In this document: positions 4,541-58,000 of the stretch, piece after piece | How positions within the stretch are numbered: the stretch's first letter is position 1 | Layout: each line of letters begins with the position of its first letter | Assembly: GCF_963921235.1 (NCBI RefSeq) | Contig: NC_086097.1 | Coordinates: 140,556,001 to 140,620,000 of the forward strand | DNA length: 64,000 nt | Direction of reading: 5' to 3' | Source: Mobula hypostoma | Taxonomy: Eukaryota | Notes under the pieces: generated by a model | The model's database searches: none | What the model was told of the DNA's origin: nothing | What the model saw: the letters and a program-made list of their open reading frames with translations, nothing else | Position numbers and translations under genes: made by a program

Positions 4541-4541
4541 T

Positions 4542-9439: not shown

Positions 9440-9560
9440 TTTCTTCTCTGTCCCTTTCCAGCCTTGGTGAAGGGTCTTGGCCCGAAACGTCAACTGTTTA
9501 TTCCCTTCTGTAGATGCTGCCTGACCTGCTGCATTCCTCCAGCATTTTATGTGTCACTCT
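9440..9560 (+). mobile_element. Penelope-like element terminal fragment with degenerate hammerhead motif
   Basis: gaagggtcttggcccgaaacgtcaactg...gatgctgcctgacctgctg shared with the longer copies that carry Penelope coding remnants. Confidence 0.7.
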
Positions 9561-9574
9561 AAATTTACTGTATG

Positions 9575-11092: not shown

Positions 11093-11954
11093 TATTTGAT
11101 TTTTCTGATACATAGATTTGTTCTTTGCGACATCTATGCCAATCTGTGTAAGTTTGCCTATTGTGACTTTACAAAACTTTGACAAATAATGAATCTCAGT
11201 TCAGAGATCTTAAACAATGAATTACCTATTCTGCAAAAGAAGTATCCTTATAGGTTATAATTAACAGATTGCATTCCAATGCTTTCATAACTGTAATCAT
11301 AGATCAAATAACCAACAATGAGATAATTGAAAATTACATTTTATTGGTATTATTGTTATACTAAAAACATTAAAGCAGACATTTGGATATAATTCAAAGG
11401 TTAATATTGAAACTTGTTACTGCAATTTTTCAGCTGGACTTCAAAACACCCTTGTTCCCAATATCTTGAGCGCTAAAACAGAGGCTTAGGTTGTCTGATA
11501 AGGGTTAATAATTACTTTAATCTATTTTAAAATAAGTGAAAAACAGGACCAAACAGGGCAGAATCAAAGAATGACCAGGAGAAACTGTACATTATATAAT
11601 GTTCTATCCTTGAAAGAAGATCTTAACAAATGGAAAAAACTAAACTTTTTTTCCCCTTTTAGTTCCATATAAAGTGAAGTGCTGTTTGTGTGTGCAGAAT
11701 GGCTTTTTCAATTGTGTCAAATGAAGCAGCATGCGCACCTGCTATTTTCTTTCCTCCAGTTTATTTACAACCCTTCTATAATCAAACTAAATATTCTGTT
11801 TATATACACACACATTTTCTGACCCTTTCCCAAAGGCCAGAATTATCCACCTAAAAGGTCATGAGGTATTCAGGCACAGCCTTATAAACAGAAACACTTA
11901 CTGAGCTGTTTGCAAGTCCTTCTGTTTATTGCATCATGGCACTGCATTAAAATG

Positions 11955-12092
11955 ATTGGTTCTGCTATTTTGGGCTGAGTCCTATATTTTACCCTTATAT
12001 AAGGGCTCTGTTAATGAACAAAATTTTTTTTTATCACTTGTAGCAAGACTAGCTTGAGATCCGCACAACTTTTCTTGCAGCACTTTATGCAG
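11955..12092 (+). promoter_or_regulatory. Candidate internal promoter and short non-coding first exon of NT5C3A
   Basis: Inverted CCAAT (ATTGG 11955-11959), TATATAAG at 11996 inside the palindrome cccttatataaggg, GATA site (ttatca 12031-12036), donor-like GCAG|gtaaac at 12092/12093, all in a repeat-free island. Motif evidence only. Confidence 0.35.
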
Positions 12093-12615: not shown

Positions 12616-12648
12616 ATGGTGGATAAAGAGAGTTTGCAGATGTTAGAG
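12616..12648 (+). CDS. NT5C3A: Candidate alternative N-terminal coding exon of NT5C3A (MVDKESLQMLE); full exon possibly 12486-12648
   Basis: Strong Kozak context gcaagATGG, 11 codons, phase-0 donor GAG|gtatgc in frame with exon 28108. Loosely resembles the human short-isoform leader MTNQESAVHVKM. Upstream acceptor ctcttcag| at 12485 with a pyrimidine tract. Confidence 0.6.
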
Positions 12649-15809: not shown

Positions 15810-16010
15810 AAGCAACACACAAAACGCTAGAGGAACTTAGCAAGTCAGGCAGCACCTGTGGAAATAAATAAGCAGTGGATGTTTCAGGCCAGAACCCTTC
15901 TTCAGGACTGGAAATGAAGGGGGAAGATGCAGAAGTAAAAAGGTGGGGGGAGGGGAAGAAGGATAGCTAGAGGAGAAATAAGAGGGGGAATAGAAAGGGG
16001 GGAGAGAATT
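15810..16010 (-). mobile_element. Penelope-like terminal fragment
   Basis: Reverse complement of the shared terminal motif, including CTGAAGA...GAAA. Confidence 0.7.
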
Positions 16011-19085: not shown

Positions 19086-22000
19086 AAGTCAATTTTGCTA
19101 CTGCTGAGAAACAGTAAGGAAAAGGGAATGTTGATTCAAGTTGTCTGAAGTGTTTGAAGCTGTAATGGAGATTTGGGACACGGTATATAAATGAAGAAAT
19201 TAAATGAACGTGTAACGAAAATAGTGCAACATTGGAGACCTCACACAAATTGAAAATTAAAAAAATACAGATGCTGGGAATCTGAATAGAAACTGAACAT
19301 ACTTGAGGCAATAAGCAAGTTAAGCAACATCTGTGGAAAGAGAAGCATTTACCATTTCAAGTCAAGACACTTCATCAGAACTGGGATAGTTTTAATTTGC
19401 AGGAAGTGAGGGGGAGAAATAGGCAAATGGAATGTTGTCAAGAGGGCGAGTCCAAGGTTAAATGGTGATTACAAAACTGACTGGTTCATAGATTAATGAA
19501 CTTGGGTAGCATTTGGATGGGGGGAGCAGGGCACAAAGAAAAGTTGATATTTCAGGTCAACAATCTTTCGGGTGAATACTGAAAATGACCAGCGGATGTG
19601 GCAGTAACTGTAGATAAAGGAGATACAAAGTTAATATTATGGATGTTAAACCTTATTGTTGAACTGGCCAGTTCTGATTCAAAATGAGTTGCCCAAAAGG
19701 GTGTTCTTTATGGACCAAACAAACATTCTTTATAAAGCAGTCACCAAATATGTAGTTGGTTTCACCTGTGAAGGCAAGGAGACAACACTGCACCAAATGC
19801 AATGCACCAGTTTGAAAGAAGTGTAAACAAAACTCAAGAAATTAAAAAGCTACATTTAGGAATAAAGTCACATCCTGATGATTTGCATCCCCATCCTGAC
19901 AGTGGCTGTGGAGATAGTGCATGGTGCTGATTGTCATTTTCTGAAAAAAGAAATCCACAGATTCCATAATTTCCCCAAATTGGAAAGACCAAATATAAGC
20001 CCACTATATGAGGAAGGAGGAAGAATAAAAAAAACTGACAAGCTGGTTATCCTGACATCAGTAGTGGACAAATTCTTAAATCTTTTTAAGCATCAGGTAT
20101 TGATAACATAAAAGTAATAACTGAATTGGTCAAAACCATATGGAAAGTGAAATCATGTTGTGCTTTTATTTGAGGGTGTAACTAGCAGGAGAGAACATGG
20201 AAAGGAGGCTTTGTTTTTGCACTTTTGTATGGTCTTTGATAAGATTATTGAACAAAACCAGAGTAAATAGTATCAGAAATCTGTGTTGTTCACAGTCCTC
20301 CCCCTCACATGCACCTGTTCCCTGGCTCATACTCTTTACAACATCCCAGGTTCCCATCTGCTTCTTGGGGAAACCCCCACCACTCATGTAGATTGAAGCC
20401 CAGAATATACCCTTTCCTTCCCAATCACCTCCCTCCAAAAGCTTCTGCCAGTCAAATAAAAGAAATTCAGTCTTCCTGTCAGCATTCACCTGGTGGACCC
20501 CAAGCACTGGAAGAGAAGGAGGATTCATCTAACCCTAACCCCAACCCTGACCCTGGCTCAGTGCTGTACATCTCACTCAGCCACCATCATCTTGGTGGGG
20601 GTGGAGTTGAGATGGCAAAACAGACAAAATCCTTCAGAAAGCAGTTCTGGACTGAATTTTTTGACCTTGCCTTCAAAAAGGTAAAAACAAACCATGGAAT
20701 CTCAGAGGTATCTTAATCATGGCCTACCATCAAATAGTAATTACATAGTAGGATCCCAGCCATGTCACAGTGAAAATTTTCATAACTTGAGCCTCTGAGT
20801 AGCCAACGGTTCCTTCCACAGGTGACATGCAAGAGGGCCCACAGACATGATAGCAATGCAAAAAAAAAACCAAGAAAAATGCATCAATCTTTTTCATCTT
20901 CATAAAAGCCTTTTCCTCAATGTGAAGGATTATGAAAGATTTTTGTCAGATTTGGCTGCCCCTAACAATTTTCATCATACTGCACCTCACCTTGGCAGTG
21001 AAGTTGTTATTCCACAGGACAAGCCAGAATGGTTCAACTTTCATCCCCTCGACTCTGAAACCAAAATTACCCAATGTTGGCTTATTACATTGTGCAGATG
21101 TTTGTGTATGCGTATGTCTGATTTCATCTTCAAAACTACTGTTGAGTCCCTGTATCACTTTGATACAACTCAGGAGTCACCTCTGGACAAAATGAAACTC
21201 TAGTTATGAGATCCATTACTGAATGCATTGACACAGCTTTTTGAAGAAAGCCCAATATCTAAACACAGCACAAACCTGATGGTCTACTCAGCAGTCATCC
21301 TGCAGTCCTTTACATGTTATAGACATTGTAGTTTGGGCACTTCAGAGCATTAGTGATGTACTATCAATGCTATCGACACAAAATCTTACTGTATACTATC
21401 AAAATAGGCAAACCAATATCATTGTCCTGTCGTTGACCAACCTTGCCATGTGTAAGGTTTTGGGTACACAATCTGCTCTGATTGTCTTTATTCTTGATTG
21501 TAGGCTCCTGAAACAACCATACAACCTTTAGCTCCAATATTGCCTTCCAAGGGAGCAGAAGAAAACCAAATATCCTTAATGACTTGTTAATAACCTTTCA
21601 ATACGCAACATCTTGGTGGCCCTACTAGAATAGTAAAGGGAAGCTAAGGGGCAACTTTTTCACTCAGAGGGTGGACTATATTTGGAAGAAGCTGTTATAG
21701 AAAACGTGTTTAAAATAAATCTGGACAGGTGTATCTAGGTAGAAAAAGGTTTAGAGGGATATGGGCTAAACACAGGCAAATGGAAAAGTTATTATAGCCA
21801 TCGTCAGAAGCGAGGACAAGTTGGGCTTTAGGGCCTGTTTCTGTCCTGCATAACTATTATTCTGAGCACAACTAATTCAAGGGTAATAAAGATTTGGTCA
21901 GTTGATGATGCGTATATGAAGGTACCAAGCACCATGTCCCAGTGAGGACCAAGTGCAACCTGGATACTAGCAAAAGCATACTAAACAATCCACCCATTCA

Positions 22001-27294: not shown

Positions 27295-27890
27295 CAAGAG
27301 ATTCTGCAGGTGCTGGAATTCCAAAGTAACACACGCCTCATCCTGGAGGAAATCTGCAGGTCAGGACGCATATTTGGAGAGGAATAAACAGTCGAAGTTT
27401 CGGGCCAAGAACCTTCATCGGGACTGGAAAGTAAGGGAGAGGGAACCAGAATGAGAAGGTTGGGTGAGGTGATATGTGAAGCCAGGTGAGGGAGAAGGTG
27501 GGTGGGAGGGTGGGGTAGAGGTATAAAGTGATAGGTAGAAAAGGTAAAAGGCGAAAGAAAAATGAATCAGATAGAGGAGTGTGGACCATGGGAGAAGGGG
27601 AAGGAGGAGGGGCACCCAGAGGGAGGTGAGAAAAAGTGGGGTAAGAGGGGATCTTAAATGTGGAATGGAAAAAAGACAAAAGGAGAACAGGGAGGAAATT
27701 ACCAGAAGTTTGAAAAATCGATGTTCATGCCATCAGGTTGGAGGCTACCCAGACAGAATATGAAGTGTTGCTCCTCCAGTCTGAGAGTGGCAGTAGAGGA
27801 GGCCATGGACTGACATGTCAGAATGGAAATTGGAAATAGAACTAAAATGGGTGGCTACTGGGTAACCTGGCCTGTTGCGGATGGAGTGAA
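27295..27890 (-). mobile_element. Penelope-like element 3' fragment
   Basis: Minus strand encodes the LEEQH.IF.LGSLQPDGMNIDF C-terminus, then a pyrimidine-rich tract and hammerhead-like motif. Confidence 0.8.
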
Positions 27891-28107
27891 GGTATATTTA
27901 GGTTTCATTGAGTTCCTAATTTCTTCACATATTATTTAGCAGTCTTATCTGCTATGATTTAATCATGTGACACATTGTTATATTTCACATGTGAGATATC
28001 TAATGAGTAGTGTAAAACTGCATAAAAGATGATGATTTAAGACGTTTTTATCCAAGCTACTTCTTCCTGTGTGACCATAGTACCCACTGTAATTTTGCTT
28101 CTCACAG

Positions 28108-28206
28108 ATGCCAGAGTTCCAGAAGAAAACTGTCCATATTAGGAATCCTGAAAGGGTAGAGGAAATCATATGTGGTCTCATTAAAGGAGGAGCATCAAAA
28201 CTTCAG
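28108..28206 (+). CDS. NT5C3A: NT5C3A exon [33 protein letters not shown]
   Basis: Acceptor ctcacag|ATG, donor CAG|gtaagc, 99 nt. Confidence 0.95.
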
Positions 28207-31200
28207 GTAAGCAATCTATCTACCAGCTAAGATTAAGGAGTTACAGAGCAGAGTTAGACATGGGTTTTCCTTTGAGCAGAGAAGAATTTAACAGAACAGA
28301 TCAAAATAGTGTGGGGGTTTTGATAGAATAAATTGGGGAAAATGTTTCCACTGGCAGAAGGATTGGTGGGTGCTTCATTTTGAAGTATTAGATATTTATA
28401 TTTCATATTTTAAAATCAAATAAAAGTTTAACAGCTATAATCTGACTATATTTTCAGTCACCATCACCCAGGCTTTTCGTGTAGTGTGTTGGGAATCTTG
28501 ATTGTTAAATTTTGAGATACTGTATTCAGTGTCATGGTAACTTGAGTAACATTGAGTAAGTATCTAGAATGTCCATGCCCCAGGTCTGACTGTATCTGTG
28601 AAACAAGGAAGAGGGTCAGTGACCTTGCCAGCTCTGATATAAACTGGAAAGGTGCTTTCTATAATTCAGGACTCAAATGATTGAGCCCTGATGAAGGATG
28701 TCAACTGCTTACTCTTCCATAGACACTGCCTGGCCTGCTGAGTTCCTCCAGCATTTTGTGTGTGTTGCTTCTGTAATTTTTGCTAGCTTGGTGTATTTTT
28801 GTTATGCTTTATGCCCATTTGTGTGAACAATATAATGTGATGTAATTACTTTATTTTTTTAAAATAATTTTGAGCAGATAATCACGGATTTTGATATGAC
28901 GCTGAGCAAGTTCTTACATAACGGAAAAAGATGTTCAACCTGTCACAGTAGGTATTTTTGTATATTAGTCACATTGGTGGAAAAAGTCTGCAACCATAAA
29001 TTCTGGAGCCATCACCTTATTGATGCCAACTTTTTACTGAATGGCAGTATTCATCATCATCCAGAAATCTGTTGATTCAAATTTTCAAAATCTGCTTCCT
29101 GGTGCTGTTGTATCACGGTTCTTAAATCTTGTCAATGTTGTGTGGTAAATACTATACATTGTAACTATTTGTTGAACCTCTTAATCAGTTTTATTTTCTT
29201 ATTTCTTTAGAACTTAAGAGGAGGCCATTAGGCCCATTGAGTCTGTATCAACTTCCAAAGAAACCCTATCAGTCATATTCCTCCACTCACTTGCAATAAT
29301 CTCTTCTTTCTCATGTGCCTGATGACTCCCAGCAATTCTACCACCCCCTTCCACTAGAGGAAAATTCCAGTAGTCAATTAATCCACCAGCATTTCTTTGG
29401 GATATGGGAGGGGAAACAGATTACAATCACAGGAACTGCAGAGTTTCAAAGGTCAGGATTAAATCCAGGTCACTGGAGCTGCGTAACAGCAGCCCCAGCT
29501 GTTAAATCACTATGTAACACATGCTGACTTGCAGTAATTTACTTTGTATTATGAAGTGTATTGAGTTTTACCTCATTTTAAACTTTTCAGATTAATGGTT
29601 ATTTTGTCCATCTGTTTGAAAACTTCAATATCCACCTCTGCAGTTGTGTCCCTGCATGGATAGAATGTTTTTGATCAATATGCAGGTACAGACAATGATG
29701 ACATTGCTGGGGATACTTATCAACCTTTCTCCAGCTTTACGTCATTTGGCAACTGCTATTTTGCATCATTGGCCAAGGAGGGGGCTGAACACATCACCAC
29801 ACAGCCTCTCTGTGTCCACTGCTCTCAGATGTATGGACTTTTGTACATTGATATTAAAGATATTGGTAACCTGTGATCATATGACAGCTGGGCATTTTGA
29901 CCTTATAAAACAAGATTATTTTGCCATACAACTGATAGTTGGTAAAGGCATAGTAATACAGCTGCAACTCTTATCAACTTGAGTACATTCCTGACCTTTA
30001 TTGGTGTCTGATTGGAGTTTACCCAGGTCCGACAGTGTCCTCCCACGTCACAAAGACATGGAGGCTGGTAGCAGTACACTGTCCTACTATGTAGATTGAT
30101 CCTCCAGATTCTACCACTCACCAACTCACTAAGGGCTGATGACAAAAGTGTGGACAGAATGGCTTATGGAGAAAATTAGTGAGCAAAGGAGATGACACTT
30201 GTGAGCCATATGTTCTAAGGAAATTATTATTTGAATTATGCAATTAATTTTTGCTACATACTGCTAAACAGTAATATTCGTTCATCATTTTTTAAATTTT
30301 GACAGACGTCATTGACAACTGCAAGTTAATCACAGAGGAATGTAGGAAGAAGGTACTCCTTTCAACCAAAAACATCATTTTCTTTCCCATTGGGTTTATT
30401 TTTCAAATTTTATTTATGTTTTTTTTTTCATTCTTGCAGTTGCTGCAGATTAGAAACAAATACTATCCAATTGAAGTTGATCCCAGCATTAGCACTGAGG
30501 AAAAATACCCTTTCATGGTGGAATGGTAAGTGCTCGGTTTTCATCCTGTATGAGTTGAATCTGAGAATGTGGTTATACCTTCAACTAATACTAATCCTGA
30601 TAAATGATGACTCTGGATAAGAATAAACTACACAAAACAGTACTTCTGCGTAGCATTTTCTGTCATTTAGTTTTGGCACTTGGGTAATGCTGGTAAGATT
30701 ACAGTTATAGTTTTCACCTTGATGTTCAGTCTTATTCTAAAGATGTGGTGGTCTTTACTGATAGTGAATGACCAGCCAGGATACGTCGGAGTATTACTAG
30801 TTCATGGAATTTTGTAAATATAACCACAACATCCTCGATCCGAGCTACAAATCTTTACCAACATCTTAAATAACCTCACCTTGTATGAACATGCAGTTTT
30901 GGCCTAAGTAGAGATATCAGTTTAAAGTTGTACTTCACATATTATAATATAGTTGTCTATATTATCACTCTCTGATTTTTTTTCCTTGTAAAAAGCTAGG
31001 ATTTATTGGAAGTAAATTCTGCTTTATGTATTTCTCTTGAGCTGTCATAACTTACTCTAGCTTGCAGAATTTTGGTCAGTGTTTCTCTATGGTGTCTCTA
31101 AACTTAACAGGATACTATCTTAGGAATGTCTGACTATCTCCTCCTTGCCCCAAGCAATGATCAGTAGCAACCCACTGCCTTTGGGGAGATTCCCTTTGGG

Positions 31201-34200
31201 AGGATTGGAATCCAAATCTGATCACTGTATTCATGACCCAGTAATAACAATGGATATACAATTAAATCATTGAGGGAAGATGTGTGTTTTGTTTGAATCC
31301 TGTTTTGATGCGGGTGGTACTGGAGAGCTCAGCACTTATTGGTTTACTGGACATTTTGAAGGGCCGATAAGAGTTGGCCATATTTGTGTGTATGGATTCA
31401 CTGGCAAATCAGATTAAGTTTAGTAGCGCAAGTACAGTGCCCCACAAGTTAGTATTAATTCAGTTCCATGTGTTGATTTTCTTATGCTCATTTTCAGTGA
31501 GAGCTCCATTTAGTGACTGGATTGGAAACTAGTGTTTGTATGTTGAACTTACTGGTCACACAAGGTATATAATCCTTAATATGCTCAACATCAAAGATTG
31601 TATCAGTTTTTTAATGTAGGGAAAGAAGATTGCAATCATCTTTAAATTATTTTTTGAATACTAATCTATGTTATGAGCCGACTAAATAAATACCTTGAGG
31701 TTCATTATTTACACTTTTATGTGGAAAAGAGTATCCTTATAAAAAGGCAGAAGTAATTCTCTTGAGTTTTCTGGTTTTTATGTATTTCTGGTAACGAACA
31801 TCTGACTGAAAATTTTCTGTGTATAGGTGGACAAAATCTCACACCTTATTGATTGAACAAGGAATTCAGAAAGAGAAATTGGCTGCGGTGGTGAGGGAAT
31901 CGGATGTGGTTCTGAGGTACTGGGGGGTTTTGGATTAAGTACCGGGTATAGTCTGTGATTCTCATAGATGTAAATAACAGGACTTGTTCAACAACGCACA
32001 CAAATAGCTGGAGAAACTCAGCAGGCCAGGCAGCATCCATGGAAAAAAGTACAGTTGACGTTTCAGACTGAGACCCTTCATCAAGACTGAAGAAAAAAAG
32101 ATGAGTAATTTAAAAGGTGAGGTGAGGGGAGAGAGAAACACAAAGTGATAGGTGAAACCCGGGAAGGGGGGGTGTTGGAGGTGAAGTAAAGAGCTGGGAA
32201 GTTGATTGGTGAAAGTGGTACAGGGTTGGAGAAGGAGGAATCTAATGGGAGAGGACAGAAGGCAGAAAGAAAAGGGGGAGGAGTACCACAGGGAGATGAT
32301 GGGCAGCGAGGAGGTAAGATTAAAGAGGGAAAAGGGGAGGGGGAATGGTGAAGGATATGTGAGAGGGTATTTTAGATTATGAAGACACGTAGTCCCCTTT
32401 TATTGTCATTTAGTAATGCATGCATTAAGAAATGATACATTATTTCCTCCGGTGTGATATCACAAAACACAGGACAAACCAAGACTGAACAAACTGACAA
32501 AACCACATAATTATACATATAGTTACAACAGTGCAACAGTACCATAACTTGATGAAGTCTGTGAGCACAGTAAAGTTCAAAGTTTCTCAAATGTCCCACA
32601 TCTCACGCAGACGGGAGAGGGAAGAAAAAACTCTCCCTGCCATGCCGACCACAATCTGACTCTGAGTCATCTGAAAACTTCGAGCTCTGATCAGCTTTCT
32701 GACACCGAGTACTGAGCGCCATCTCTGTCCAAGCAATTCGACCTCTTTCTCGGTCGCCAAAAGCAGGCAAGGCCGGGGTTTTGAGGCCTATTCTCCGAAA
32801 GATTCCCGACCACACAGTAACGACAGCAGCGGATGGGCGTTTCAGAAATTTCTCCAGATGTTCCTCTGTGCTTTCACGTCTATCTCCATCAAATCAGAAA
32901 TTGTCCATGGCCCCTATTTAACAGATACGACATCATTTTTCACCGGAGAGCTGCACACGCGTGGTGCACTGCCATCTTCTCCTCCCGCCATTTAACCTGA
33001 AGTTCGAGAAATCGATGTTCATGCCATTAGGTTGGAGGCTACCGAGGTGTTGTTCCGCCAACCTGAGTGTGGCCTCATCATGACACTGGGAGATTCCGCT
33101 TCTTCTGGTGGACGGAGCACGTGTGCTCGGCAGAGCAGTCTCCCAATCTACATTGGGTCTAACCGGGAGCACCAGACACAGTACACGACCCCAACAGACT
33201 CTCAAGTGAAGTGTCATGGTAGTGAGAGAGGAGGTATAGGGGCAAGTGTAGCACTTATTCCACTTGCAAGGATAAGTGCCAGGAGGGAAATCAGTGGGGA
33301 GGAGCGAATGGACAGGGGAGTTCAGTTAGGGAACAGTTCCCGCGAAAAGCAGGAAGTGGGGGGAGGGAGAGATGTGCTTGGGATGGGATCCCATTGGAGA
33401 TGGTGGACGTTCTGGAGAATTATTTGCTGGACGAGGAGGCTGCTGGGGTGGTAGGTGAGGACAAGAGGAACCCTATCCCTGGAAGGGTAGCAGGAGAATG
33501 GGGTGAATGAAATTGAAGAGATGCGATTGGGGGCAGCGTTGATGATGGAGGAAGGGAAGCCCCTTTGAAAGAGGAGGACATCTCCAGCATTTTGTATGTG
33601 TTGCTTGGATTTCCAGCATTTGCAGCTTTTCTCCCGTTTGTGATGATTTGGATTAAACTTGGTTTGAGGTCTGTAATGTAAAATGTATTGTGGTTTTGCA
33701 GGGATGGTTATGAGGTGTTTTTCGACAAACTGAATGAACACAACATCCCAGTGTTCATTTTTTCAGCTGGTATTGGTGATGTGCTGGAAGAGGTAATTTC
33801 TCAGGGCGGGGTCTTCCACTCCAATGTGAAAGTAGTCTCCAACTTCATGGATTTTGATGAGAAGGTAAGTTGTTGACCTTGATACTTATTTCATTGTGCT
33901 ACGAATTATAGTTCAGACACAACTGTCATGTTGAAGGGGGAGTTGGGTTTCTAGAAAACAGTGTATCACAATTTCCTATAACATGAGACCACATAATTTA
34001 TGCATGCATCAAGAAATACAAGTTGGAGGAAAAGTATTTTCTTTTTTTCCTGTAAATGCCCCAAACTTGTGGACAAATTTCTGTTAAAAGAATTGTCATA
34101 ACACCACACTAGATGTTTGAATCTGATCAACTGAATTATAATGTTAATTGACCATAGTTTCTTCTAGTTGGTAACAGCATGTATATTTTGCTACATATGA

Positions 34201-44279: not shown

Positions 44280-44815
44280 ACAAACAAGAGAAAGTCTGCA
44301 GACGCTGGAAATCTGAGCAACACACAAAATGCTGGAGGAGCTCAGCAGGTCAGGCAGCAACAATGGAAAAAAGTACAGACGACATTTTGGGTTGAAACCC
44401 TTCAACAGGACTGGAGAAAAAAAGCTGACGAGTAGATTTGAAAGGTGGGGAGAGGGGAAAGAGAAACGCCAGGTGATAGGTGAAACTTGGAGGGGGAGGG
44501 ATGAAGCAAAGAGCTGGGAAGTTGATTGGTGAAAGAGACAGAAGGCCATTGAAGAAAGGGGGGGGGGGAAGGAGCACCAGAGGGAGGCGATGGGTGGGCA
44601 AGGAGATAATATGAGAGAGGGACAAGGGGATGGGAAATGGTGGAGGAGGGGGAGAGGTGGTAGAGGCATTGCTGGAAGTTTGAGAAATCGATGTTCATGC
44701 CATCAGGTTGGAGACTACCCAAACAGAATATATGGTGTTGTTCCTCCAATCTAAGTGTGGCCTTATCACGACAGAAGAGGCGGCCTTGGATGGACATATT
44801 GGAATGGGAATGGTA
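44280..44815 (-). mobile_element. Penelope-like element 3' fragment
   Basis: [29 protein letters not shown] plus the shared terminal motif. Confidence 0.8.
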
Positions 44816-45892
44816 TTAACTCAGGAAGGCTTTGGGTCTTTGTACCTTGTACGGTGATATGTATCACCTTTACCTCTAAAGCTGAGCAGGGCAGAAAGTA
44901 AAATGGTTATGCAATTTGGAATTTGTTAGAAACAGACACAACTTCAACCTAACTGGAGTCTCTGCAGAAGCAAAAAACTGCATGTGATAAAAATTTGAAC
45001 CAGAAAATGCTGGAAATATAAGGCACATTGGTCAGCATCTTTGGAGAGAGAAACTATATTATAAAGTTTCAGACTTCAAATAATCAAGCTGACTTTCAAA
45101 GATACTACCTGACCTGCTCAGTTTTTCCAAAATTTTCTCATTTTATTTCTATCTCTCAGATCCTGATTTGACATTTGCAGATAAAACCCTGGGTGTGGGA
45201 GGAGGTGAGGTTCTCCTGTAGCAAGTGTGAATCTATGATTCTAATCCATTAAATGTTATGATGGTGAATGTATCCCCATAACCTGGCGCAAAATCACACA
45301 AATAGAACGTGCTCAGGAACTCTATTCATTTTAAGCTCTGAAGTTACGTCTCCCTTTTTGGAAAAAAAAGGTTGAAGCACAATTACCGCACTGGGTAATG
45401 CTTTTGCATCTCCTGTTTGCAGTTGTAGTATTCTAGTCTAACTGAGTCACCTGGATACAACTTAGCTAAATATGAGTAATTCTCAAGCAATACAGAACAT
45501 ACAAGTTAGAAGGAATTCCACTTGCATGTGAAAACATTGTTTGGTGTTCTTGAGCAAAGGCTGACAGATGTTGATATTCTTGACGTAAATTTAGATCTTA
45601 AAAAGGACTAATTTGGAGTGTATGAAATGAGGGGTTGGGGGAAGATGAATTTCTTCAAACACTGACAAAAATAAAATGTGGAAAGAAAATGCTAAAAAAA
45701 AAGATGCACATGTTCCGTGTTCTCAGGGGCTGAATGAACACTGTATTGACTCCAGTTACGCATGAGCAATTGGGAATTGATGATTAAAGATAACTGTTAT
45801 CCATAATGCTGTAGATGAGAAATATGGACAGGAACCCAACAGTTAACCCATTACTCTCCACTCAACAGCAGCACTGTTATGCAACCTTGGCT

Positions 45893-46072
45893 CTACAGCT
45901 CATCATGTTTGGAACTCTCCTGATCCTTCAGCTTGAATTCGTCAACTGTTATTTTGCCATCCCCGTTCCGGTCCTGGTTGGAGAACATGTTCTCAATTAT
46001 CTTATCTGGAGAAAAGCCAGGGGCTAGTTTCCCATGACCACTGTCCACTTGGGCCTGGATATACTTTGAAAA
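45893..46072 (-). CDS. FKBP9: FKBP9 last coding exon FSKYIQAQV...[27 protein letters not shown]
   Basis: ttacag|TTT, EF-hand 2, HDEL ER-retention signal, TAG at 45893-45895. Confidence 0.95.
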
Positions 46073-49000
46073 CTGTAACAAGAAAGAAGTAAAGACATGA
46101 GAGGTTGGACTAAAACCAGAAAAGTAGCTCCCTAGGCTGGAGACAGAGCAGGACCTTACAGTATGTGTATTTGTGACTCAATGGATTACACACCCTCATC
46201 TGACTCACGGCATCAATTCCCACTCAAGTAAATAAACCAAAAGACTACAGATGCTGGAAAACAGAAAATGTTGGAAACACTCAGCAGACCAGGCAGCATC
46301 TTTGGAAAGAGAAACAGGTTTAATGTGTCAAGTTGAAAATACAGTGTGTTTCCAGAATTTTCTGTCTTCCTCCAGGTCATCATTGAGACTAAACCTGGAG
46401 TTAGACCCAGAGCTGATTAAGGATCAGCAACATATTAACAAACTGGAGTGGGAGGAGAGGCCGCCCATTTTGGTTTCTCATCCTGGCAGTCGAAAGTTCG
46501 GGAGGTGCTGTGAGAGTAGTTTGGCATTTTATGTTGCACCAGTTCTGGAGGCAATGACTGTTCAGAGAGAAACACCATTGGTTATTAAATGCTTTGAAAT
46601 ATCTTGACATGATAGAGGATCTAATAAATCTGTTCCGTCCCTTTATACCATTACCACTGGCACAGAACATAATTGGAAAATAATTCCCTCCGGAAGTGAA
46701 ATATCGCAGGCACTGAAAATCTATTAAAAATAAAGAGTCTGGTTCATGTGCTGAGTATTAACAGCATTTTCAGTTCTTGTAACCTTTCCCTATCTGGAGC
46801 AGGCATTCATTGTGATTAAGTCACATGATTTACTCTACATAACCTACCTCCACTGGATGTCAATACAGCAAACATTGCACAGCTAACCACTCCCATAACT
46901 CCTTATTGTTACGGACCTACCGCGAGGGCAGACAGAGGAGGGGTTCTTTAATCTTCATATTGTAAATCCTTTGACTGTGGATATTAGTTTTTACTACACC
47001 CAAGACCAAGGCTTATAAATAATAGGACACCCAGGATTTGTGGATTAGGCAGAAAGTGACAGTTAGAATCAGCAATGGTCTTGCTGTATCAGAGTTGAGT
47101 TCTTGTCCACCTGCTGCTGCTTCCATATTGTTACATAACAGGCTCACAAATCAGAGAGTGACACCACACAGAAACCGGGCCTTTGACCCAATTCATCCAT
47201 GCCAATCAAGTGGTCTGCCTAAGTTAGACCCATTTGTCTGTATCTGGCCCGTATCCCACTAATCCCGCCCTATCCCTGTTCCTGTCCAAGTGCTTATAAT
47301 ACATTGTAATAACGAATATCTCTACCATTTCCTCTGGCATCTCATTTCATATACCGTCTTCCTCTACATATAAAATTACCCCTCAAGTGCTCTTTAAATC
47401 TATCCCCTCTCACCTTAAACCCTCTAGATTTAGGACTCCCCTGGAGAAAGGACTGTGGCTATTACTTTACCTATGCCCCTCTAGATTTTATAAATCAAAA
47501 TTATTTTATGAACACCTGTGAGTGTTAAGGAGTGGTTTAGGGCACTGTGTTTCTAGAGATAAACCTCTACCTGCTGAAATTGTAAACTGGTGGGCCACGT
47601 GAACATCAAGCAAACCCACATACTCCTAAACAAGTGATTCCACTGCTTCGAACACCCTCCACCCCCACCCTTCTTCTACCCAACCCTCACCCTATCTCCA
47701 ACACCCCCACCCTCCTCAACCCCATCCTATGGCCACACATACCTCTGCCATTCTTTCCAACCCCACCCCATCCCTAATACCCCTCCATCATCATCCCCTG
47801 CCCAACCTCAACATCTCTATTCAATCCTCACCAATCCCACCCTATGACACCCACAACTCTCCAGCATCTCTTCAAACCCCACCTCTCCCCTCCCCATCCT
47901 CTCCAAACCTCATCCCTCCCCTCCCCATCTGCTCCAACCCTCACTCCTCCCCTCCCCTACCCCACCCTCTCCATATCCCACCATCCCCAGCCCCCAGTCC
48001 ATCCCCCATCCTCTCCAATCCCCACCCCTCCCCATCCTCTCCAATCCGCACCCCTCCCATCCTCTCCAATCTGCACTCCTCCCATCCTCTCCAATCTGCA
48101 CTCCTCCCCATCCTCTCCAACCCCCACCTTTCCCCATCCTCTCCAACCCCCACCTTTCCCCAACCTCTCCAACCCCCACCCTTCCCCACCCACTCCAACC
48201 CTCAGCCCCCATCCCTTCCAACCCCCACCATTCCCACGCTCTCCAACCCCCACCCAGCCTCCACCCCTCCCCATCCTCTCCAACCCCCATGCTGTCCCCA
48301 ACACCTCACCAAGCCCCACCCCGTCCCCCACCCCTCTTCCTTGCACCCCAATCCCCACTTCTCCCACATTTCAGTGATTGATAATTTTACCTCCTCTGAA
48401 GTGATTTCGTTGTTTCCATCTTTGTCTATTTCCTGGAAGATGTCTGGTGACACCTCTTCATTCCAAACAAACATGTACCCCTCTGGGAGACCAGTGACCA
48501 ATTCTATCAGTTCCACTTCAAAGACAAGTACTGCACTGCCAGGAACCTCTCCCGCTGTAGGACAGGAGACAGAGAGAATGGAAACAGGCCATTCAGCCCA
48601 CAGAGTCCATGCTGGCCATTAGGCACTCACGTTAGCACTCCCGGTAACTTCCATCCCAACAACAGGAAGCAGATCATCTCACTCTCCTTCCCTGTCACTC
48701 CTGCAGACACACACCCAGGAATGATGGGGGAAGATCAGAGTCACTACTTCCAGATTCTTGTACTGGTAACATTCAGAAATCACAGCCTTTCAGTGTCTCT
48801 ACATCCCAGAGCTAAATGTTACCTTCAATGTGACCCATGAATTCATAGTTTCCACAGTATAAATCAACATTGTTTCACTGATAGTCTGGGAAGCAATGGG
48901 TGAATCGAGTAAACTCTTGGTGGAGCAACTGCAAGAATATAGAAGAACTTCAACCACGTCAACTTGAGGGGCCAAATGGCCTCCTGTGCCATCCCAATGT

Positions 49001-52000
49001 CATTGTTAATCATTTAGAGTGTTACTGGGCAACAGTGGAGTTTTGACATTGCAAATCAAGTCAATCACAGTTGAGATTTACCCGAACTTGATTATGCTTG
49101 TGACCAAGGATCAAGCTGCATCAGTCACAACTTGTGTTGCATGTTGCCATATAAAAGTTTTTGACCAAACCGTAGTAGTAATCTGCTACGTACCAAGCCC
49201 TTTCTCTCCATAGCCCAGGTGAGGTGGGATTATGATAGTCCGTCTCTCTTCAACACACATGTCAGTGAGACCCATGTCCATCCCAATGACCACTTGACCA
49301 GATCCCAGAACAACGTTGTATGTTTTTCCATAGTTGTGACTGAAAAGAATTGGGACATAAATGGAGACAGCATAGAATCATCGTGATATAGCATATAAAC
49401 AGGCTCTATAGCCCATCGAGCCTGCTCCAACCATCAGGCACCCGTTTAACTATTTTATTCTCTGCACATTCCTATAATCTTCTAAAGATCAGTGGTAGAG
49501 AAATAAAAATGCAGGCACACAACTGATACATAAACACAAAATCCTCTGCAGATGCTGGGGTCAAAGCAACACGCACAACAGGCTGGAGGATACAACTGAT
49601 ACAGTTGGCCAGCAATATACTGTATGTAACTTCCATCAACATCTTCACCCCCATGGTCATGCAACAAACCTCAGCTGATAGCTGTAACATGCAGCCTGCA
49701 CACAGGCACCAAGGTCAAGATTAATTTCTCTTCCATAGAGAGGGGAGAGGGGACAGGAAACAGGAAAATGGAAAAGCAGAGATGATAGAGGGAGGGAGAA
49801 ACAGAGGAGAGGAACATAAGTAAGACGGACTCAATGAAGAGAAAGAGGAGAGAGAGAGAAACGAAGAGACAAATCTCTGAAATACCTTGACCCAGAGATC
49901 AGAAAACCATGAAGTTAGTTATTCCAGGACAGAATCATGTGCCAGGTATGGCAGACTGGGCATCTGGTGCCGTAGACCAGGGTCAGGTATCACAAACCAC
50001 AAGTCTGTTAATCAGCAACAAATGCTAATGTGCATGCACAGGGTTAATAGTCTGAAGCTGAGGGAACGCCCATTGGGTTATGTGCTTATCTCAACATCTG
50101 TTTTTTAAATGGTAACAGATTTCTGGATTTCCACATCAGCATTCAGCAGAGAAATGTAGGATTCAGGGCAGAGGCAGCATCGAGTGCAAACCTTCCTGAC
50201 TGCTTCTGAATGACAGAGAGCCAACTCACACCACTTCTGAAAGACAGAGAGTCAGCTCACACCACTTCTGAAAGACAGAGAGCCAGCTCACACCACAGAC
50301 ATACAAAAGACCAGCTAGTAATCCAGAGGAACTGCAGCCCATCTCCCAGAAACAACATCCGCAAGCAGGTCATTCAGCCACCAGACCCTGCTGTACTTTA
50401 TAACCATATAACAATTACAGCATGGAAACAGGCCATCTCGGCCCTTCTAGTCCGTGCCGAACTCTTACTCTCACCTACTCGCACCAACCTGCACTCAGCC
50501 CATAACCCTCCATTCCTTTCCTGTCCATATAGCTGTCCAATTTAACTTTAAATGACAACATCATACCTACCTCAACCACTTCTGCTGGAAGCTCGTTCCA
50601 CACAGCTACCACTATCTGAGTAAAGAAGTTCCCCCTCATGTTACCCCTAAACTTTTGCCGTTTAACTCTCAACTCATGTCCTCTTGTTTGAATCTCCCCC
50701 ACTCTCAATGGAAAAAGCCTATCCACGTCAACTCTATCTATCCCCCTCATAATTTTAAATACCTCTATCAAGTACACCCTCAACCTTTTACGCTCCAAAG
50801 AATAAAGACCCAACTTGTTCAATCTTTCTCTGTAACTTAGGAGAGGAAACCCAGGTAACATTCTAGTAAATCTTCTCTGTACTCTCTCAATTTTGTTGAC
50901 ATCTTTTCTATAATTTGGTGACCAGTACTGTACACAATACTCCAAATTTGACCTTACCAATGCCTTGTACAATTTCAACATTACATCCCAACTCCTATAC
51001 TCAATGCTCTGATTTATAAAGGCCAGCATACCAAAAGCTTTCTTCACCACCCTATCCACATGAGATTCCACCTTCAGGGAACTATGCACCATTATTCCTG
51101 GATCCCTCTGTTCCACTGCATTCTTCAATGCCCTACCATTTACCATGTATGTCCTATTTTGATTAGTCCTACCAAAATGTAGCACTTCACATTTATCAGC
51201 ATTAAACTCCATCTGCCATCTTTCAGCCCACTCTTCTAACTGACCTAAATTTCTCTGCAAGCTTTGAAAACCTACTTCATTATCCACAACTCCACCTATC
51301 TTAGTTATTCATCTGCATACTTACTAATCCAATTTACCACCCCATCATTAATATATATGACAAACAACATTGGACCCAGTACAGATCCCTGAGGCATACC
51401 ACTAGACACCGGCCTCCAATCTGACGAACAGTTATCCACCACTACTCTCTGGTGTCTCCTATCCAGCCACTGCTGAATCTATTTTACTACTTCAATATTA
51501 ATACCCAACGATTGAACCTTCCTAACTAACCTTCCATGTGGAACCTTGTCAAAGGCTTTACTGAAGTCCATATAGACAACATCCACCGCTTTACCCTCAT
51601 CAACTTTCCGAGTAACCTCTTCAAAAATTCAATAAGATTTGTCAAATGATCTTCCACGCACAAATCCATGTTGACTGTTCCTAATCAGACCCTGTCTATC
51701 TAGGTAATTATATATACCATCTCTAAGAATACTTTCCATCAATTTACCCACCACTGAAGTCAAACTCACAGGCCGATAATTGCTAGGTTTACTCTTAGAA
51801 CCCTTTTTAAACAATGGAACAACATGAGCAATATGCCAATCCTCCGGCACCATCCCCGTTTCTAATGACATTTGAAATATTTCTGTCAGAGCCCCTGCTA
51901 TTTCCACACTAACTTCCCTCCAGTTCTCAGGGAATTTTCTGTCAGGACCCGGAGACTTATCCACTTTTATATTCCTTAGAAGTGCCAGTACTTCCCCTTC

Positions 52001-55000
52001 TTTAATCGTCATAGTTTCCATAACTACTCTACTTGTTTCCCTTACCTTACATAATTCAATATTCTTCTCCTTAGTGAATACCGAAGAAAAGAAATTGTTC
52101 AAAATCTCCCCCATCTCTTTTGGCTCTGCACATAGCCACCACTCTGATTCTCTAAGGGACCAATTTTATCCCTCACTATCCTTTTGCTATTAATATAACT
52201 GTAGAAACCCTTTGGATTTATTTTCACCTTACTTGCCAAAGCAACCTCATATCTTCTTTTAGCTTTTCTAATTTCTTTCTTAAGATTCTTTTCACATTCT
52301 TTATATTCCTCGAGCACCTCATTTACTCCAAGCTGGCTATATTTATTGTAGATATCTCTCTTTTTCCAAACCAAGTTTTCAATATCCCTTGAAAACCATG
52401 GCTCTCTCAAACTTTCAACCTTTCCTTTCAACCTAACAGGAACATAAAGATTCTGTACCCTCAAAATTTCACCTTTAAATGACCTCCATTTCTCTATTAC
52501 ATCCTTCCCATAAAACAAATTGTCCCAATCCACTCCTTCTAAATCCTTTCGCATCTCCTCTAAGTTAGCCTTTCTCCAATCAAAAATCTCAACCCTGGGT
52601 CCAGTCCTATCCTTCTCCATAATTATATTGAAACTCGAGAATCTCCAGAGGGGAAGGCCCCAGATCTCCGGAGGGGAAGGCCCCAAATCCTCGGCTTTGC
52701 CCATTGCCTGTTGCCAGGGCCGGGGTCGATGTGCTCGGCAGAGATGGTGCTCGGTGTCACAGGGCTGGTTGGAGGCTTGAAGTTTTCGGACGGACTCAAG
52801 AGTCGGCTGTGGTCAGGTGCTTCCAGGATGCTGCATCGACAAGTTTGCAGCGCTGGAAGCTCATGGCAGGAAGAGAGTTTCTCTTCCTTCTACCGTCTGC
52901 GTCAAATGATGGGACTTTTGAGAGACTTTGAGACTTTTTTTTTTACCGTGCCCATGGTCTGTTCTTCATCAAATTAGATTACGAAGACACACAGTCCTCC
53001 TTTATTGTCATTTAGTAATGCATGCATTAAGAAATGATACAGTATTTCCTCCGGTGTGATATCACAAAACACAGGACAGACCAAGACTGTAAAAAACTAA
53101 CAAAACCACATAATTATAACATATAGTTACAACAGTGCAACAATACCATAACTTGATGAAGAAGTCCATGAGCACAGTAAAAGTTCAAAGTCACTCAAAT
53201 ATCCCACATCTCATGGAGACGGAGAGAAGGAAGAAAAACTCTCCCTGCCATACCCGACCACGGTCCGACTCTGAGTCATCCCAAAACTTCGAGCTCTGAT
53301 CAGCTCTCCGATACCAAGTATTGAGCGCCATTACTATCCGAACGATTCGACCTCCTTCTCGGTCACCAACAGCAGGCAAAGCCGGGGATTTTGAGGCCTA
53401 CCCTCCGGAAGGTTCCCGACCATGCAGTAACGACAGCAGTGAATGAGTGTTTCAGAAATTTTTCTAGATGTTCCTCTGTGCTTTCACATCCATCTTCATC
53501 AAATCAGAATTGTCCACGGCCCCTATTTAACAGATACGATATAATTTTTCATCAGAGGGCTGCGCATGCGCGACACGCTGCTTCTCTTCTCCTCCTGCCT
53601 ACGGTATTATGGTATTGCTTTGCATTGTTGTAACTATATGTTATTATTATGTGGTTTTTGTCAGTTTTTTTAGTCTTGGTTTGTCTTGTGTTTCTGTGAT
53701 ATCATTCTGGAGGAACATTGTATCATTTCTTAACACATGCATTACTAAATGACAATAAAAGAGGACTGTGTGTCCTCATAATCATAATAACTTTATCCTC
53801 TGTCAAAGCATAACCCCAATTCTGCAGAGACTGTGTTTATGGAGCTGACTCTCTATCTGTCCCTGACTGAGCCCTCCCTCAGTCACTGCATCAGAATAAG
53901 AATCAGAATCAGGTTTCATCACCGGCATCTGTCACGAAATTTGTTGCTACGCAGCAGCAGCACATTCCAATACATAATAAAAACTATCAATCACAGTAAA
54001 TAGATATATATTTTAAAGTTAAATTAAAGAAGCAGAGCAAAAAGAGAAGAGGTAGTGCTCATAGGTTCAATGTCCATTCAGAAATCTGATGGCAGAGGGG
54101 AAGAAGCTGTTCCTGAACCGTAAAGGCTATTCATGCATGGGCCATACATTACATTGTCCCACACCCTGAGCAAAACAAAAATATTCTCGTTGTTCTACCT
54201 ATTCCCCCCCTCCCCACTGTTTCTGCATCTCTTGCATTGGTATGCCCTTGGAGCAGCCCGCAAATGTTGGCACGTTTCCAGCACCAACATAGAAACATAG
54301 AAAATAGGTGCAGGAGTACGCCATTCGGCCCTTCGAGCCTGCACCGCCATTCAGTATGATCATGGCTGATCATCCAACTCAGAACTCTGTACCAGCCTTC
54401 CCTCCATACCCCCTGATCCCTTTAGCCACAAGGGCCATATCTAACTCCCTCTTAAATATAGCCAATGAATTGGCCTCAACTGTTTCCTGTGGCAGAGAAT
54501 TCCACAGATTCACCACTCTCTGTGTGAAGAAGTTTTTCCTAATCTCGGTCCTAAAAGGCTTCCCCATTATCCTCAAACTGTGACCCCTCGTTCTGGACTT
54601 CCCCAACATCGGGAACAATCTTCCTGCATCTAGCCTGTCCAATCCCTTTAGGATTTTATACATTTCAATCAGATCCCCCCTCAATCTTCTGAATTCCAAC
54701 GAGTATAAGCCTAGTTCATCCTGTCTTTCTTCATATGAAAGTCCTGCCATCCCAGGAATCAATCTGGTGAACCTTCTTTGTACTCCCTCTATGGCAACAT
54801 AGCATGGCCACTAACACAAACCCGTACGCCTCCGGAACATGGGAGGAACTGGCGCACCCAGAGGAAGCACACAGGGCCACGGGGAGAGCATACGCAGTCC
54901 TTACAGACAGTGGTGGGAATTGAATCCCGAGCTTACAGATTGTTGCACTGAATGCAACTCTACTGTGCCTCCTCAATATTACCATGCCTTTTCCCAACAT

Positions 55001-58000
55001 TGCAGAGTCTCCGATTATCAAAAATCTGATCAATCTCATTCTACCCACCATTAGTTGCTGCTGTTTGTAGGAGAGAGTTCTGACCTTTTCCCACCCCTTT
55101 GCAGATGTGTTTCCTAAACCCATTACTGAAGCATGCCCTCTACTCCCTGGTCACGGACTCTGTCCAATAGGAAGACACTCTCTCCATCTGGCCTCTCATA
55201 TTACCTCCCCTAATATCCAGAAAACTTCAACCAAATATATCTCAACCTTTGACGTTCCAGGTGCCATCCTTTACATCAAGGCTGCACTCCCTAAAAGCTA
55301 GGATATCAATACTCACTGAGGCATCCAGTACTGTCCTGTGTATCCCTGTAGCAAAGCTTATAGCCCTCATCCTGTTAGCTGTTGTCATTACTTTCTACTG
55401 CACCATCCATAACATTTTGATCAAAAATCAAGATATTGTAGAAATTAGCAGACACAAGGAAATCTGCAAATGCTGGAAATTCAAGCAACACACACAAAAA
55501 ATGCTGGTGAATGAAGCAGGTTAGGCAGCATCTAAGGAAGAGGTACAGTCGACGTTTTGGGCCGAGACCCTTCGTCGGGATTAACTGAAAGAAGAGGTAG
55601 TAAGAGATTTGAAAGTGGGAGGGGGAGGGGGAGATCCAAAATGATAGGACAAGACAGGAGGGGGAGGGTGGATCTAAGAGCTGGAAAGTTGATTGGCAAA
55701 AGGGATACCAGACTGGAGAAGGGAGAGGAGCATGGGACGGGAAGCCTGAGGAGAAAGAGAAAGGGGGAGGGGAGTCCAGAGGGTGGAGAGCAGGCAAGGA
55801 GTTACAGTGAGAGGGACAGAGGGAGGAAAAAGAGAAAAAAAAGGAGGGAAAAAATAAAATTAAAAAAAAAGGGATATATTTTTTATTCCCCCCTTTTTTT
55901 CTCTCTCTTTTTTCTCCCTCAGTCCCTCTCACTATAACTCCTTGCCTGCTCTCCACCCTCTGGGCTCCCTCCCCCCTTCTCTTTCTCCCCAGGCTTCCCG
56001 TCCCATGATCTTCTCCCTTCTCCAGCTCTTAGATCCACCCCTCCCCCTCCTGTCTTCATCTATCTTTTCAGATCTCCCCCTCCCAAATCTCTTACTATCT
56101 CTTCTTTCATTTAGTCCTGACGAAGGGTCCGGCTCAAAACGTCGACTGTACCTCTTCCTACAGATGCTGTCTGACCTGCTTTGTTCACCAGCATTTATTG
56201 TAGAAATTATAGTATTTAGCCAAGGCATTAAACACGTCCTTTCTGACTGGATATTCTGTGAGAACAGGGTAGGTCTCCATAGTGTATTGGCCAATACTTA
56301 CAATTCACCCAACATCACCACAGACAGGTCATCTTAAGAAAGTGAGCATTTAAACTGTGTAGCACCATTCACTGCCTCAGTATGTACCAGAGCATTCTGT
56401 CAGCTAATGAAATTCAATCACTAACAGTGACAGAAACACTGCCATTATTTTAATGACATTTTGCTGTATGTAATTTGATTGCAGCATGTCTAATCTTATG
56501 GTAGTGACCACGGGTGCTGGATTGGTTGGAGATAACGTTGGGAGGAGTTGAAGGTGAAATAGGTTTTGGTTTAATACATTTTCTTTATCAAGTCATAGAC
56601 TTCACTGTGTTTCAGCCAAAGCTTCAGCACAGGTACCATTATCTGTGCAGGGGTTAGAAAGAAAAGCAATACTTACGTAGATTCTAATTGCGTCCCATCC
56701 ATTAGAGTTGCGTTGAAGTGATACTTGATGTAGTCCCCTTTCTTGGTTCGGGCAGTGCAGTTGCTTGGCTTGTGGGAAGTTTTGATCTCAATTTTATCAG
56801 ATGGATTGTGGACGTCAATCAAATGGATGTGAAAAACAAGGACAGCAGAGCCAGGGATGCTATCGCCTGTTCCAAAAGGAAACAGCATATCAGAGTAACA
56901 CCAGTCATGGGGGGAGAGGAAATCCACTCCTCAAGGTTCTGGCTGACAATATGTTCAATCATAACTAGATCTTTTGGGTCTGAGGACCTCCACTGGTTCC
57001 CAGTGAACCTGGAGAAATCAAGGAAGACTATAGTGCTGCCAGAACATTGGGAGTTCTAGCAACAACACTAATTTTGTCAGCAATAACTCAAGATTGTAAA
57101 AACCCAAAAATTGGTTGCCTGATAATTTGGAAATCCTGAGGTTTGGCATTTGGATGACCACTTTTTGATTCCCCACTCCCCTTTTAAATGCACTAGGGCC
57201 CCATTGCTCATTCTCCCTTTAAATACACTGGGTTCACTGGAAAAAAATGTTACACTATAGTGCATGATTTTAAGAAAGGGACATTAAAATTTGTCCTGTA
57301 TCAATAGGAGCAACATTCAATATGGTGGAAAATCTGCAAGTGTGATTATCAGTGTTACTGCAAAAAAAATTAATAAATTGTGCATCGTATGGTATTTTTT
57401 CCTGTTAATGTGGAGATTTATAACATCGAGGGGCATACACAGCATATGTAATCAGATCAATAACAACATCACATTTAAGACTCACAATAACAAGGAAATA
57501 TAAATAAAATCAAAACCCAGCCAAGACCAATAGTTAACTTGCATAAACTGAAGAGGTTTAACAAATACTTTAAATTGTTTCAGGTGCACTAACTATTAAA
57601 TCATACTTACTTACACCTTCTTCACCGTATCCCAGATGTGGGGGGATTATAATGGTCCTCCACTCTCCAACACACACACCCAACAATCCTTCTTCCATCC
57701 CAGCAATCACCTGGCCCATCCCAATGTAGGTGTCATAAGTATGATTACGAGAATAGCTGGAAAAGAACCAAACAATGTGGAACTGCTTCCAGAGAAGTAC
57801 AACTAGATGAGAATGAGTGTCCATATTGGACACATCCATACCCTATTCTGCCAACCAGTCCACATCTCTACTCACTCCCAACCACATCTAAACTGCTCCA
57901 CCCCACTCAGTCAACATCTGTATCCTCCTACCTATTCACATCTGTAATCCTCAATTACACCTGGTCCACATCCTTCTCCCATCCACACCTGTACCTTTAC

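Follow-up and report, generated by a model that had tools for sequence, protein, structure and literature searches.

The 64-kb window examined here (64,000 nucleotides of the forward strand of Mobula hypostoma contig NC_086097.1, positions 140,556,001 to 140,620,000, assembly GCF_963921235.1) carries coding exons of two genes, which we take to be an NT5C3A-like gene of the UMPH-1 family and an FKBP9-like gene, together with a dispersed family of short motifs resembling the hammerhead ribozymes of Penelope-like elements (PLEs). Exons were placed from Pfam matches and translation rather than from splice-junction reads; exon 1 of the NT5C3A-like gene lies ~8.6 kb to the left of the window, so positions 1-28107 belong to its intron 1. 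An earlier reading of the letters (the original prediction) had listed eight copies of a ~36-nt motif, interpreted them as minimal type-I hammerheads of PLE ends, and proposed that they spread potential self-cleavage into introns of both genes. All eight were recovered at the predicted positions and strands in the window, with one boundary corrected: the copy given as 19351-19382 is present on the minus strand but spans 19347-19382. A profile built from the eight copies scored 74-94 bits on those same eight, which is circular, and gave no match of 10 bits or more in ten order-3 Markov copies of the window. The rebuilt profile yielded 11 window matches, including a deleted copy at 28682, missed by the original prediction, and two tail pieces. 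Five of the eight copies lie in introns of the NT5C3A-like gene and two, the arms of one inverted insertion, in a single FKBP9-like intron; the copy at 44377 is not intronic, lying ~1.5 kb beyond the FKBP9-like stop codon. The motif is not free-standing: it occupies the middle of a ~100-nt end of a pseudo-long terminal repeat (pLTR) that runs 65-105 nt beyond the cut site, and in three window copies the end of an endonuclease frame is still present upstream. The family makes up 3.6% of the window sequence (Table 1).

Table 1 Coordinates of host-gene exons and PLE-derived features in the window. Core positions follow hammerhead numbering; sense and antisense refer to the host gene.
Feature	Position	Strand	Remarks
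NT5C3A-like gene, coding exons (UMPH-1 family)	28108..34944	+	Pfam matches and translation
FKBP9-like gene, coding exons in window	45890..59284	-	FKBP_C domains, EF hand, HDEL before stop; gene continues past 64000
PLE pLTR end	9454..9558	+	Motif 9460-9495: C3U, A6G; stem I 2/4 pairs; NT5C3A-like intron 1, sense
PLE pLTR end	15811..15987	-	Motif 15874-15909: ACGU palindrome broken, stem I 3/4 pairs; intron 1, antisense
Old pLTR end	19288..19388	-	Motif 19347-19382: U16.1G; intron 1, antisense
5'-truncated PLE	27328..27894	-	Endonuclease remnant 27705-27894, 3' untranslated region (UTR), motif 27390-27425 (U4C, broken palindrome); intron 1, antisense
Ninth copy, lacking stem II and GAAA (deleted)	28681..28769	+	Profile match; intron 2, sense
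pLTR end	31992..32218	-	Motif 32053-32088: C3U; NT5C3A-like intron, antisense
PLE linker (Cys motif) and GIY-YIG remnant	32996..33585	-	Upstream of the 32053 copy
5'-truncated PLE, A6C lineage	44316..44816	-	Endonuclease end 44672-44812; motif 44377-44412: A6U, G12A; beyond FKBP9-like stop codon (3' UTR or intergenic)
Left arm, head-to-head inverted PLE insertion	55484..55835	-	Motif 55547-55582: U4C, G12A; FKBP9-like intron, sense
Right arm, same inverted insertion	55893..56205	+	Motif 56113-56147: G12A, 1-nt stem II deletion; antisense
Tail-only pLTR pieces	33581, 45092, 46261		Profile or alignment matches

Every window copy is altered, as had been predicted: a strict hammerhead descriptor matched nothing in the window, core bases are changed in seven of the eight copies, and only 15874-15909 keeps them all. 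The motif is very probably a minimal hammerhead of type I that a highly abundant PLE carries in its terminal repeat, and the window copies are best read as mutated 3' stumps of that element that likely do not cleave. The remnant at 32996..33585 and the 32053 copy are likely one insertion split by another repeat. The inverted arms at 55713-56025 form a long hairpin within the FKBP9-like intron, a possible substrate of A-to-I editing, and this hairpin is the source of most of the spurious Rfam microRNA matches in the window.

The scale of the family was apparent genome-wide. The inner 34 nt of the predicted consensus has 1,021 exact occurrences in the genome (3.48 Gb), against none for its reversed pattern. 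Over 34 nt, 45,476 copies match an intact core exactly, 38,871 with U and 6,605 with C at position 11.1. A sample of 71 stretches of 10 kb (710 kb), placed at round coordinates of large contigs, contained 145 pLTR ends against 0 in the reversed control, corresponding to ~7.1x10^5 ends genome-wide (bootstrap 5.8-8.5x10^5), and the family covers ~5% of the sampled sequence. The strict descriptor matched 15 times in the same sample and 0 times in its reversed control, which extrapolates to ~73,000 copies; seven of the 15 have a G-C closing pair (~34,000 copies).

Loci with the exact motif share from 1 to ~800 nt of upstream sequence, which reaches a frame encoding a Cys linker and a GIY-YIG end. 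Searching the genome with a 290-residue linker/GIY-YIG piece gave 234,227 first-look candidates, of which 135 were scored. Among 14 fetched long-frame loci, the motif stands on the 3' side in all and a 1043-codon open reading frame (ORF) is kept in five; the element period is ~3.5 kb, and four of these five (L092, L093, L094 and L096) have the motif on both sides of the ORF. By direct reading, the protein of L093 contains the reverse transcriptase (RT) motifs DKG and YIDD, a Cx4CxxC linker, CxxC plus two His, and VIY..YIG. It has 944 homologues, the best named one being from Chiloscyllium (bamboo shark; 71% identity), which points to a cartilaginous fish as host; a sequence search of the PDB returned no match. 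The element thus has the features of endonuclease-positive (EN+) PLEs, namely a single ORF with RT followed by a GIY-YIG endonuclease, DKG and CCHH motifs, pLTR pairs that are 95-99% alike, two 3' ends ~35 nt apart, and inverted copies such as the pair at 55484-56205. The prediction of a minimal type-I hammerhead of PLEs is therefore borne out: both pLTRs flanking the RT and GIY-YIG frame contain the motif, and its geometry is that described in PMC4209133. The linker agrees with the CX2-5CxxC of Neptune or Nematis and therefore suggests placement with one of these clades as defined in PMC8557442. The five open frames differ by only 0.95-2.4%, indicating recent amplification of the family. Long inverted arrangements of young elements were seen at L096 and L105, the palindrome of L096 extending over 5.5 kb at 99.4% identity.

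Copies were sorted into lineages by tail sequence alone, which left 24 of 119 sampled copies without assignment. Divergence from the lineage's own majority is 14% in O, 8% in C, 3.5% in Y and 3.3% in B, and a few copies are very old. In the lineage majorities, the motif runs from a stem I of 4-5 bp through CUGANGA and an extra A to stem II (4 bp, capped by a tetraloop), followed by GAAA, the palindrome ACGU and GUC, which is the layout of a minimal hammerhead of type I. Thus the predicted type-I arrangement holds, except that stem II is better drawn with four pairs (three G-C and one U·G) and a 4-nt loop than with three. Lineages Y, O and B have the core bases C3-A9, G12-A14, A15.1-U16.1 and H17 in their majority sequences; lineage C departs from this core by A6C. 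The extra A between 9 and 10.1 is found in 38/39 Y, 46/50 O and 18/18 C copies, and the ACGU palindrome (15.2-16.2), which provides no stable stem III, is the majority in all lineages. The pair 10.1-11.1 closing stem II is G-C in O, C and B, and G·U in the youngest lineage. In a folding model, U11.1 weakens stem II by 1.6 kcal/mol, the predicted pairing of stems I and II being 0.85 and 0.87 in a C11.1 copy vs 0.50 and 0.50 in a U11.1 copy; in the same kind of model, which has no tertiary terms, the active dimer is less stable than the best dimer fold by 15-21 kcal/mol. The Rfam comparison recommended with the original prediction returned no hammerhead family, either among 34 window matches (E up to 5) or among 2 matches on an intact young copy (E up to 10), as would be expected for a motif without stem III. 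The other Rfam matches in the window were dismissed as hairpin or low-complexity noise below gathering scores.

After insertion, copies of the older lineages decay neutrally, the core like the tail. Non-CpG mismatches affect 48/400 core and 165/1158 tail positions in lineage O (p 0.27), and 5/103 and 26/432 in lineage C (p 0.82). Two departures from the standard ribozyme mark lineages that amplified to tens of thousands of copies each, in keeping with a ribozyme that copying can do without. A6C was present in 10/14 lineage C copies vs 2/71 in Y and O (p 2e-8), a tally that excludes focal matches, one duplicated copy and loci picked by the A6C pattern or for young ORFs. Lineage C, joined to its own ORF end in 3/18 fetched loci, extrapolates to ~9x10^4 ends from the 18 found in 710 kb. 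That A6C is a scattered mutation was rejected on this tally and on the fetched matches, where 18/30 have a distinct tail in common and the other 12 derive from the young lineage by point mutation. In two other hammerheads, A6C is reported to reduce cleavage in Mg2+ (PMC3088659, PMC7151607). Several A6C copies also carry G5A (L121, L123, L141, L144), a change expected to kill the core; the combination occurs in 4/14 lineage C copies but only five times among the first 100 exact matches listed, and a G5A sub-lineage that amplified with a dead ribozyme is possible. In the youngest elements, U11.1 was read in 41/43 cases behind young ORF ends (three loci were read twice). An origin of U11.1 in mere CpG decay was discarded, with U11.1 present in 25/39 young copies and other CpG cytosines of the motif changed in 0-3/39. 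A small young lineage, B (L109:4525, L134:9704-9846, L048:8244), has a different stem II loop, and U at 17 in three of four copies.

Insertion ends bear on whether the ribozyme takes part in copying. The 3' ends cluster at about +65-75 and +102-104 from the cut. For 5' starts of young copies, genome-wide matches in which all five upstream bases differ from the element were counted at four sampled positions, giving 91 at +12, 341 at the cut, 155 at -13 and 349 at -29, the front edge of the motif. After correction by hand for match rates (27, 21, 21 and 13 of 31, respectively) and for base composition and the flank filter, these become ~420, ~2,000, ~830 and ~4,200. The cut site thus stands out locally, at 2-5x its neighbours at +12 and -13 but about half of -29, and it accounts for 1-2% of ~100,000 young copies. 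Recurrent junctions, judged by eye, make up 43 of the first 100 cut-site matches listed, in two classes attributable to brief sequence identities inside the motif, and 41 of the 100 listed first at -13; without them, ~1,150 starts remain at the cut vs ~490 at -13. Moreover, inverted junctions were found at 8/12 fetched cut-site loci, where the 4-nt match of stem I provides microhomology, explaining part of the excess.

It is therefore worth weighing whether the ribozyme is active in vivo, cutting tandem or read-through transcripts of young elements so that a small share of insertions is copied from the cut 3' product. The local excess of starts, which persists without recurrent junctions, would be its trace; two same-strand motifs are present in four of five open-frame elements, and the hammerhead of an anole PLE cleaves with help of protein (PMC11167929). 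However, the excess concerns a small fraction of young copies at four sampled positions, the front edge of the motif has about double the starts of the cut site, most fetched cut-site loci are microhomology junctions, none of 96 sampled alignments starts within 6 nt of the cut, and anole RNA-seq gave no RNA ends at the site (PMC11167929). Such activity is thus conceivable but doubtful. A more elaborate version, to be held more tentatively still, is that the genome records a PLE hammerhead through successive bursts: it would cut in vivo and leave a small peak of insertions beginning at the scissile bond, while source elements drift towards weaker ribozymes (A6C, then G·U at 10.1-11.1) as strong cutting removes the template.

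An action of intact dispersed copies on the host, whereby sense copies in introns or UTRs cut or destabilise transcripts or have been co-opted, could draw on the strict-descriptor copies estimated above and on the abundance of young sequence in contigs of sequencing runs guessed to be RNA, which is not itself proof of transcription. The 23 run entries listed were all contigs, and four runs compared with an element gave no position at which many molecules start or stop, a signal beyond the reach of contigs. The window offers no intact copy for it. Five of the eight copies run antisense to the host gene. Those in sense, at 9460, 55547 and (only if the UTR reaches there) 44377, have two core changes each, so cleavage of the two host transcripts is not expected, and the suggestion of potential self-cleavage carried into both genes is not supported for this window, where the copies likely would not cut host RNA. 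Old copies decay neutrally, and monomers of this class remained uncleaved in vitro (PMC4209133). Furthermore, close neighbours are mostly head-to-head: within 4 kb, among the first 100 young copies listed (99 intervals), 10 pairs were head-to-head, 1 tail-to-tail and 2 same-strand, so that most close pairs (10/13) place a motif with its antisense and would give no active dimer from one transcript. On this evidence, a host function is very unlikely.

Most copies are 100-400 nt long without ORF sequence, and animal retrozymes have been reported to derive from PLE pLTRs, one chondrichthyan included (bioRxiv 10.64898/2026.07.22.740005), which raises the alternative of an independent, non-autonomous family of short copies, retrozyme- or short interspersed element-like, spreading through its own circular or tandem RNA. 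The short copies nevertheless have ragged 5' ends and are continuous into the 3' UTR and ORF of the PLE, a tandem finder detected no array of the motif in the window, and same-strand neighbours are confined to the 2/99 intervals noted above. The ragged ends and missing arrays largely refute a retrozyme origin of the window copies, and overall this alternative is very unlikely.

The data are best accommodated by a hammerhead-bearing PLE whose 5'-truncated insertions accumulate as stumps. A tandem element would be transcribed through pLTR-ORF-pLTR, and the RT/endonuclease would nick the DNA and begin copying 65-105 nt downstream of the cut, as the two shared 3' ends and the anole element suggest. 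With such a start, the ribozyme falls among the first 100-140 nt copied and is kept in most 5'-truncated insertions, which may often form head-to-head pairs. The motif in the source RNA lacks its own stem III, and cleavage after GUC would, judging from published members, require either dimerisation through the ACGU palindrome or help from the element protein. Cutting is probably weak and dispensable for copying, given that most copies span the cut site, that one lineage amplified with A6C and that G·U closes stem II in the youngest; once inserted, copies would decay without selection. The ribozyme hence looks like weak cargo, with copying independent of it.

Some observations weigh against this interpretation. 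The stems are paired in all lineages, and the oldest shows a compensatory C-G to U-A exchange at 2.1-1.1, with U opposite the A-bearing 3' strand in 5/5 long-spacer copies vs 4/53 others, suggesting that the fold may have been under some selection in source elements. The stems are otherwise nearly invariant in this comparison within one genome, and covariation is limited to that one exchange. The excess of starts at the cut site may also mean that some templates are cut in vivo, a hint rather than a demonstration. As to the element itself, Pfam recognises RVT_1 (E 6e-5) and GIY-YIG (E 0.002) in its protein, both under curated cut-offs, and the Cys linker suggests a Neptune or Nematis type.

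Other repeats surround the PLE copies. A CpG-rich Gypsy-type long terminal repeat retroelement at 4402-8596 (+) in intron 1 encodes RT, RNase H and integrase in separate frames (Pfam) between 139-nt direct repeats that are 91% alike (4402-4540 and 8458-8596). A DNA-transposon-like segment is present in two copies, 84-92% alike (9575-11101 and 13300-14850), with long palindromes at 10381-10536 and 14097-14256; its frame at 9934-10434 had no Pfam match. A tandem repeat of 93 bp fills 2877-3329 (4.9 copies, 98% identity), and Tc1-like transposase remnants and CR1/L2-type long interspersed element fragments occur at 36212-36925, 16480-17300, 41130-42930, 50475-52812 and 61484-62596, the regions 50.4-51.8 kb and 61.4-62.8 kb being 90-95% alike. 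In addition, a UMPH-1 gene and an FKBP gene with four domains, presumably NT5C3B and FKBP10, form a convergent paralogous pair at 66.28-66.51 Mb of contig C91, showing block duplication of the gene pair.

The family is of a known kind, to which this study adds its scale, a recent burst of open frames, two non-standard ribozyme lineages and a small surplus of insertions beginning at the scissile bond. What hammerheads do in PLEs is described as unclear (PMC4209133, PMC11167929, PMC8557442). The window copies alone matter little, as dead ends of a known element; if the reading of in vivo cutting with drift to weaker ribozymes is right, tens of thousands of intact copies would make this ray the best natural system for asking what purpose PLE hammerheads serve. 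Datable lineages with differing cores, source-like intact elements and ~10^5 young insertions allow DNA-only tests of cutting against insertion ends, and the same genome allows a test for purging of intact sense copies from introns. No paper on PLE hammerheads of sharks or rays, on PLE lineages with A6C or on a G·U pair at 10.1-11.1 came up in a literature search, although the supplements of PMC4209133 and bioRxiv 10.64898/2026.07.22.740005 may list such motifs; the available part of PMC4209133 makes no mention of sharks or rays.

The closest relatives of the motif are the minimal hammerhead ribozymes (min-HHRs) of metazoan PLEs, including Xena, Poseidon and Neptune of fish (PMC4209133). They share its type-I layout with CUGANGA/GAAA, the extra base between 9 and 10.1, the palindromic 15.2-16.2 without loop 3, a stem I of 4-5 bp and the location in both pLTRs, and they too occur mostly as single dispersed copies of truncated elements, with some close opposite-strand pairs. 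Single min-HHR motifs did not cleave in vitro and dimers cleaved weakly (PMC4209133). Differences are the 4-bp stem II, as opposed to 7-8 bp in Schistosoma, the G·U of the youngest lineage at 10.1-11.1, where G-C is listed as highly conserved, and the A6C lineage; the copy number is also far above the ~9,000 of Xenopus tropicalis and 4,000 of coelacanth, though methods differ (PMC4209133). The natural A6C hammerhead of phage Bcep176 has the same core change and lower Mg2+ cleavage (PMC3088659, PMC7151607), but is a single phage ribozyme, whereas A6C here, known from sequence alone, marks a whole transposon lineage. Animal non-LTR retrozymes, known in one chondrichthyan, likewise have a type-I hammerhead of PLE origin; they are head-to-tail arrays of a fixed non-coding unit, in contrast to the ragged stumps of a coding element described here (bioRxiv 10.64898/2026.07.22.740005).

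At the level of the element, Neptune/Nematis EN+ PLEs share the C-terminal GIY-YIG after RT, the CX2-5CxxC linker, CCHH, DKG, the 30-40-bp tail and the adjoining inverted 5'-truncated copy (PMC8557442); the present ORF has a long N-terminal part of ~300 residues, and its clade is suggested by the linker. Anolis Poseidon PAc has a pLTR hammerhead, a tandem structure and two 3' ends defining the tail (PMC11167929), and its two RT start sites resemble the two 3'-end clusters found here. PAc differs in that its ORF begins within the hammerhead, the likely start Met of the present element lying ~140 nt past the cut, and in belonging to Poseidon, whereas the element described here, read from its DNA only, has a Cys linker of Neptune/Nematis type. 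The PAc hammerhead cleaves only with the element's protein and is not needed for insertion, which proceeds in vitro without cleavage (PMC11167929), in agreement with the pattern seen in the present element.

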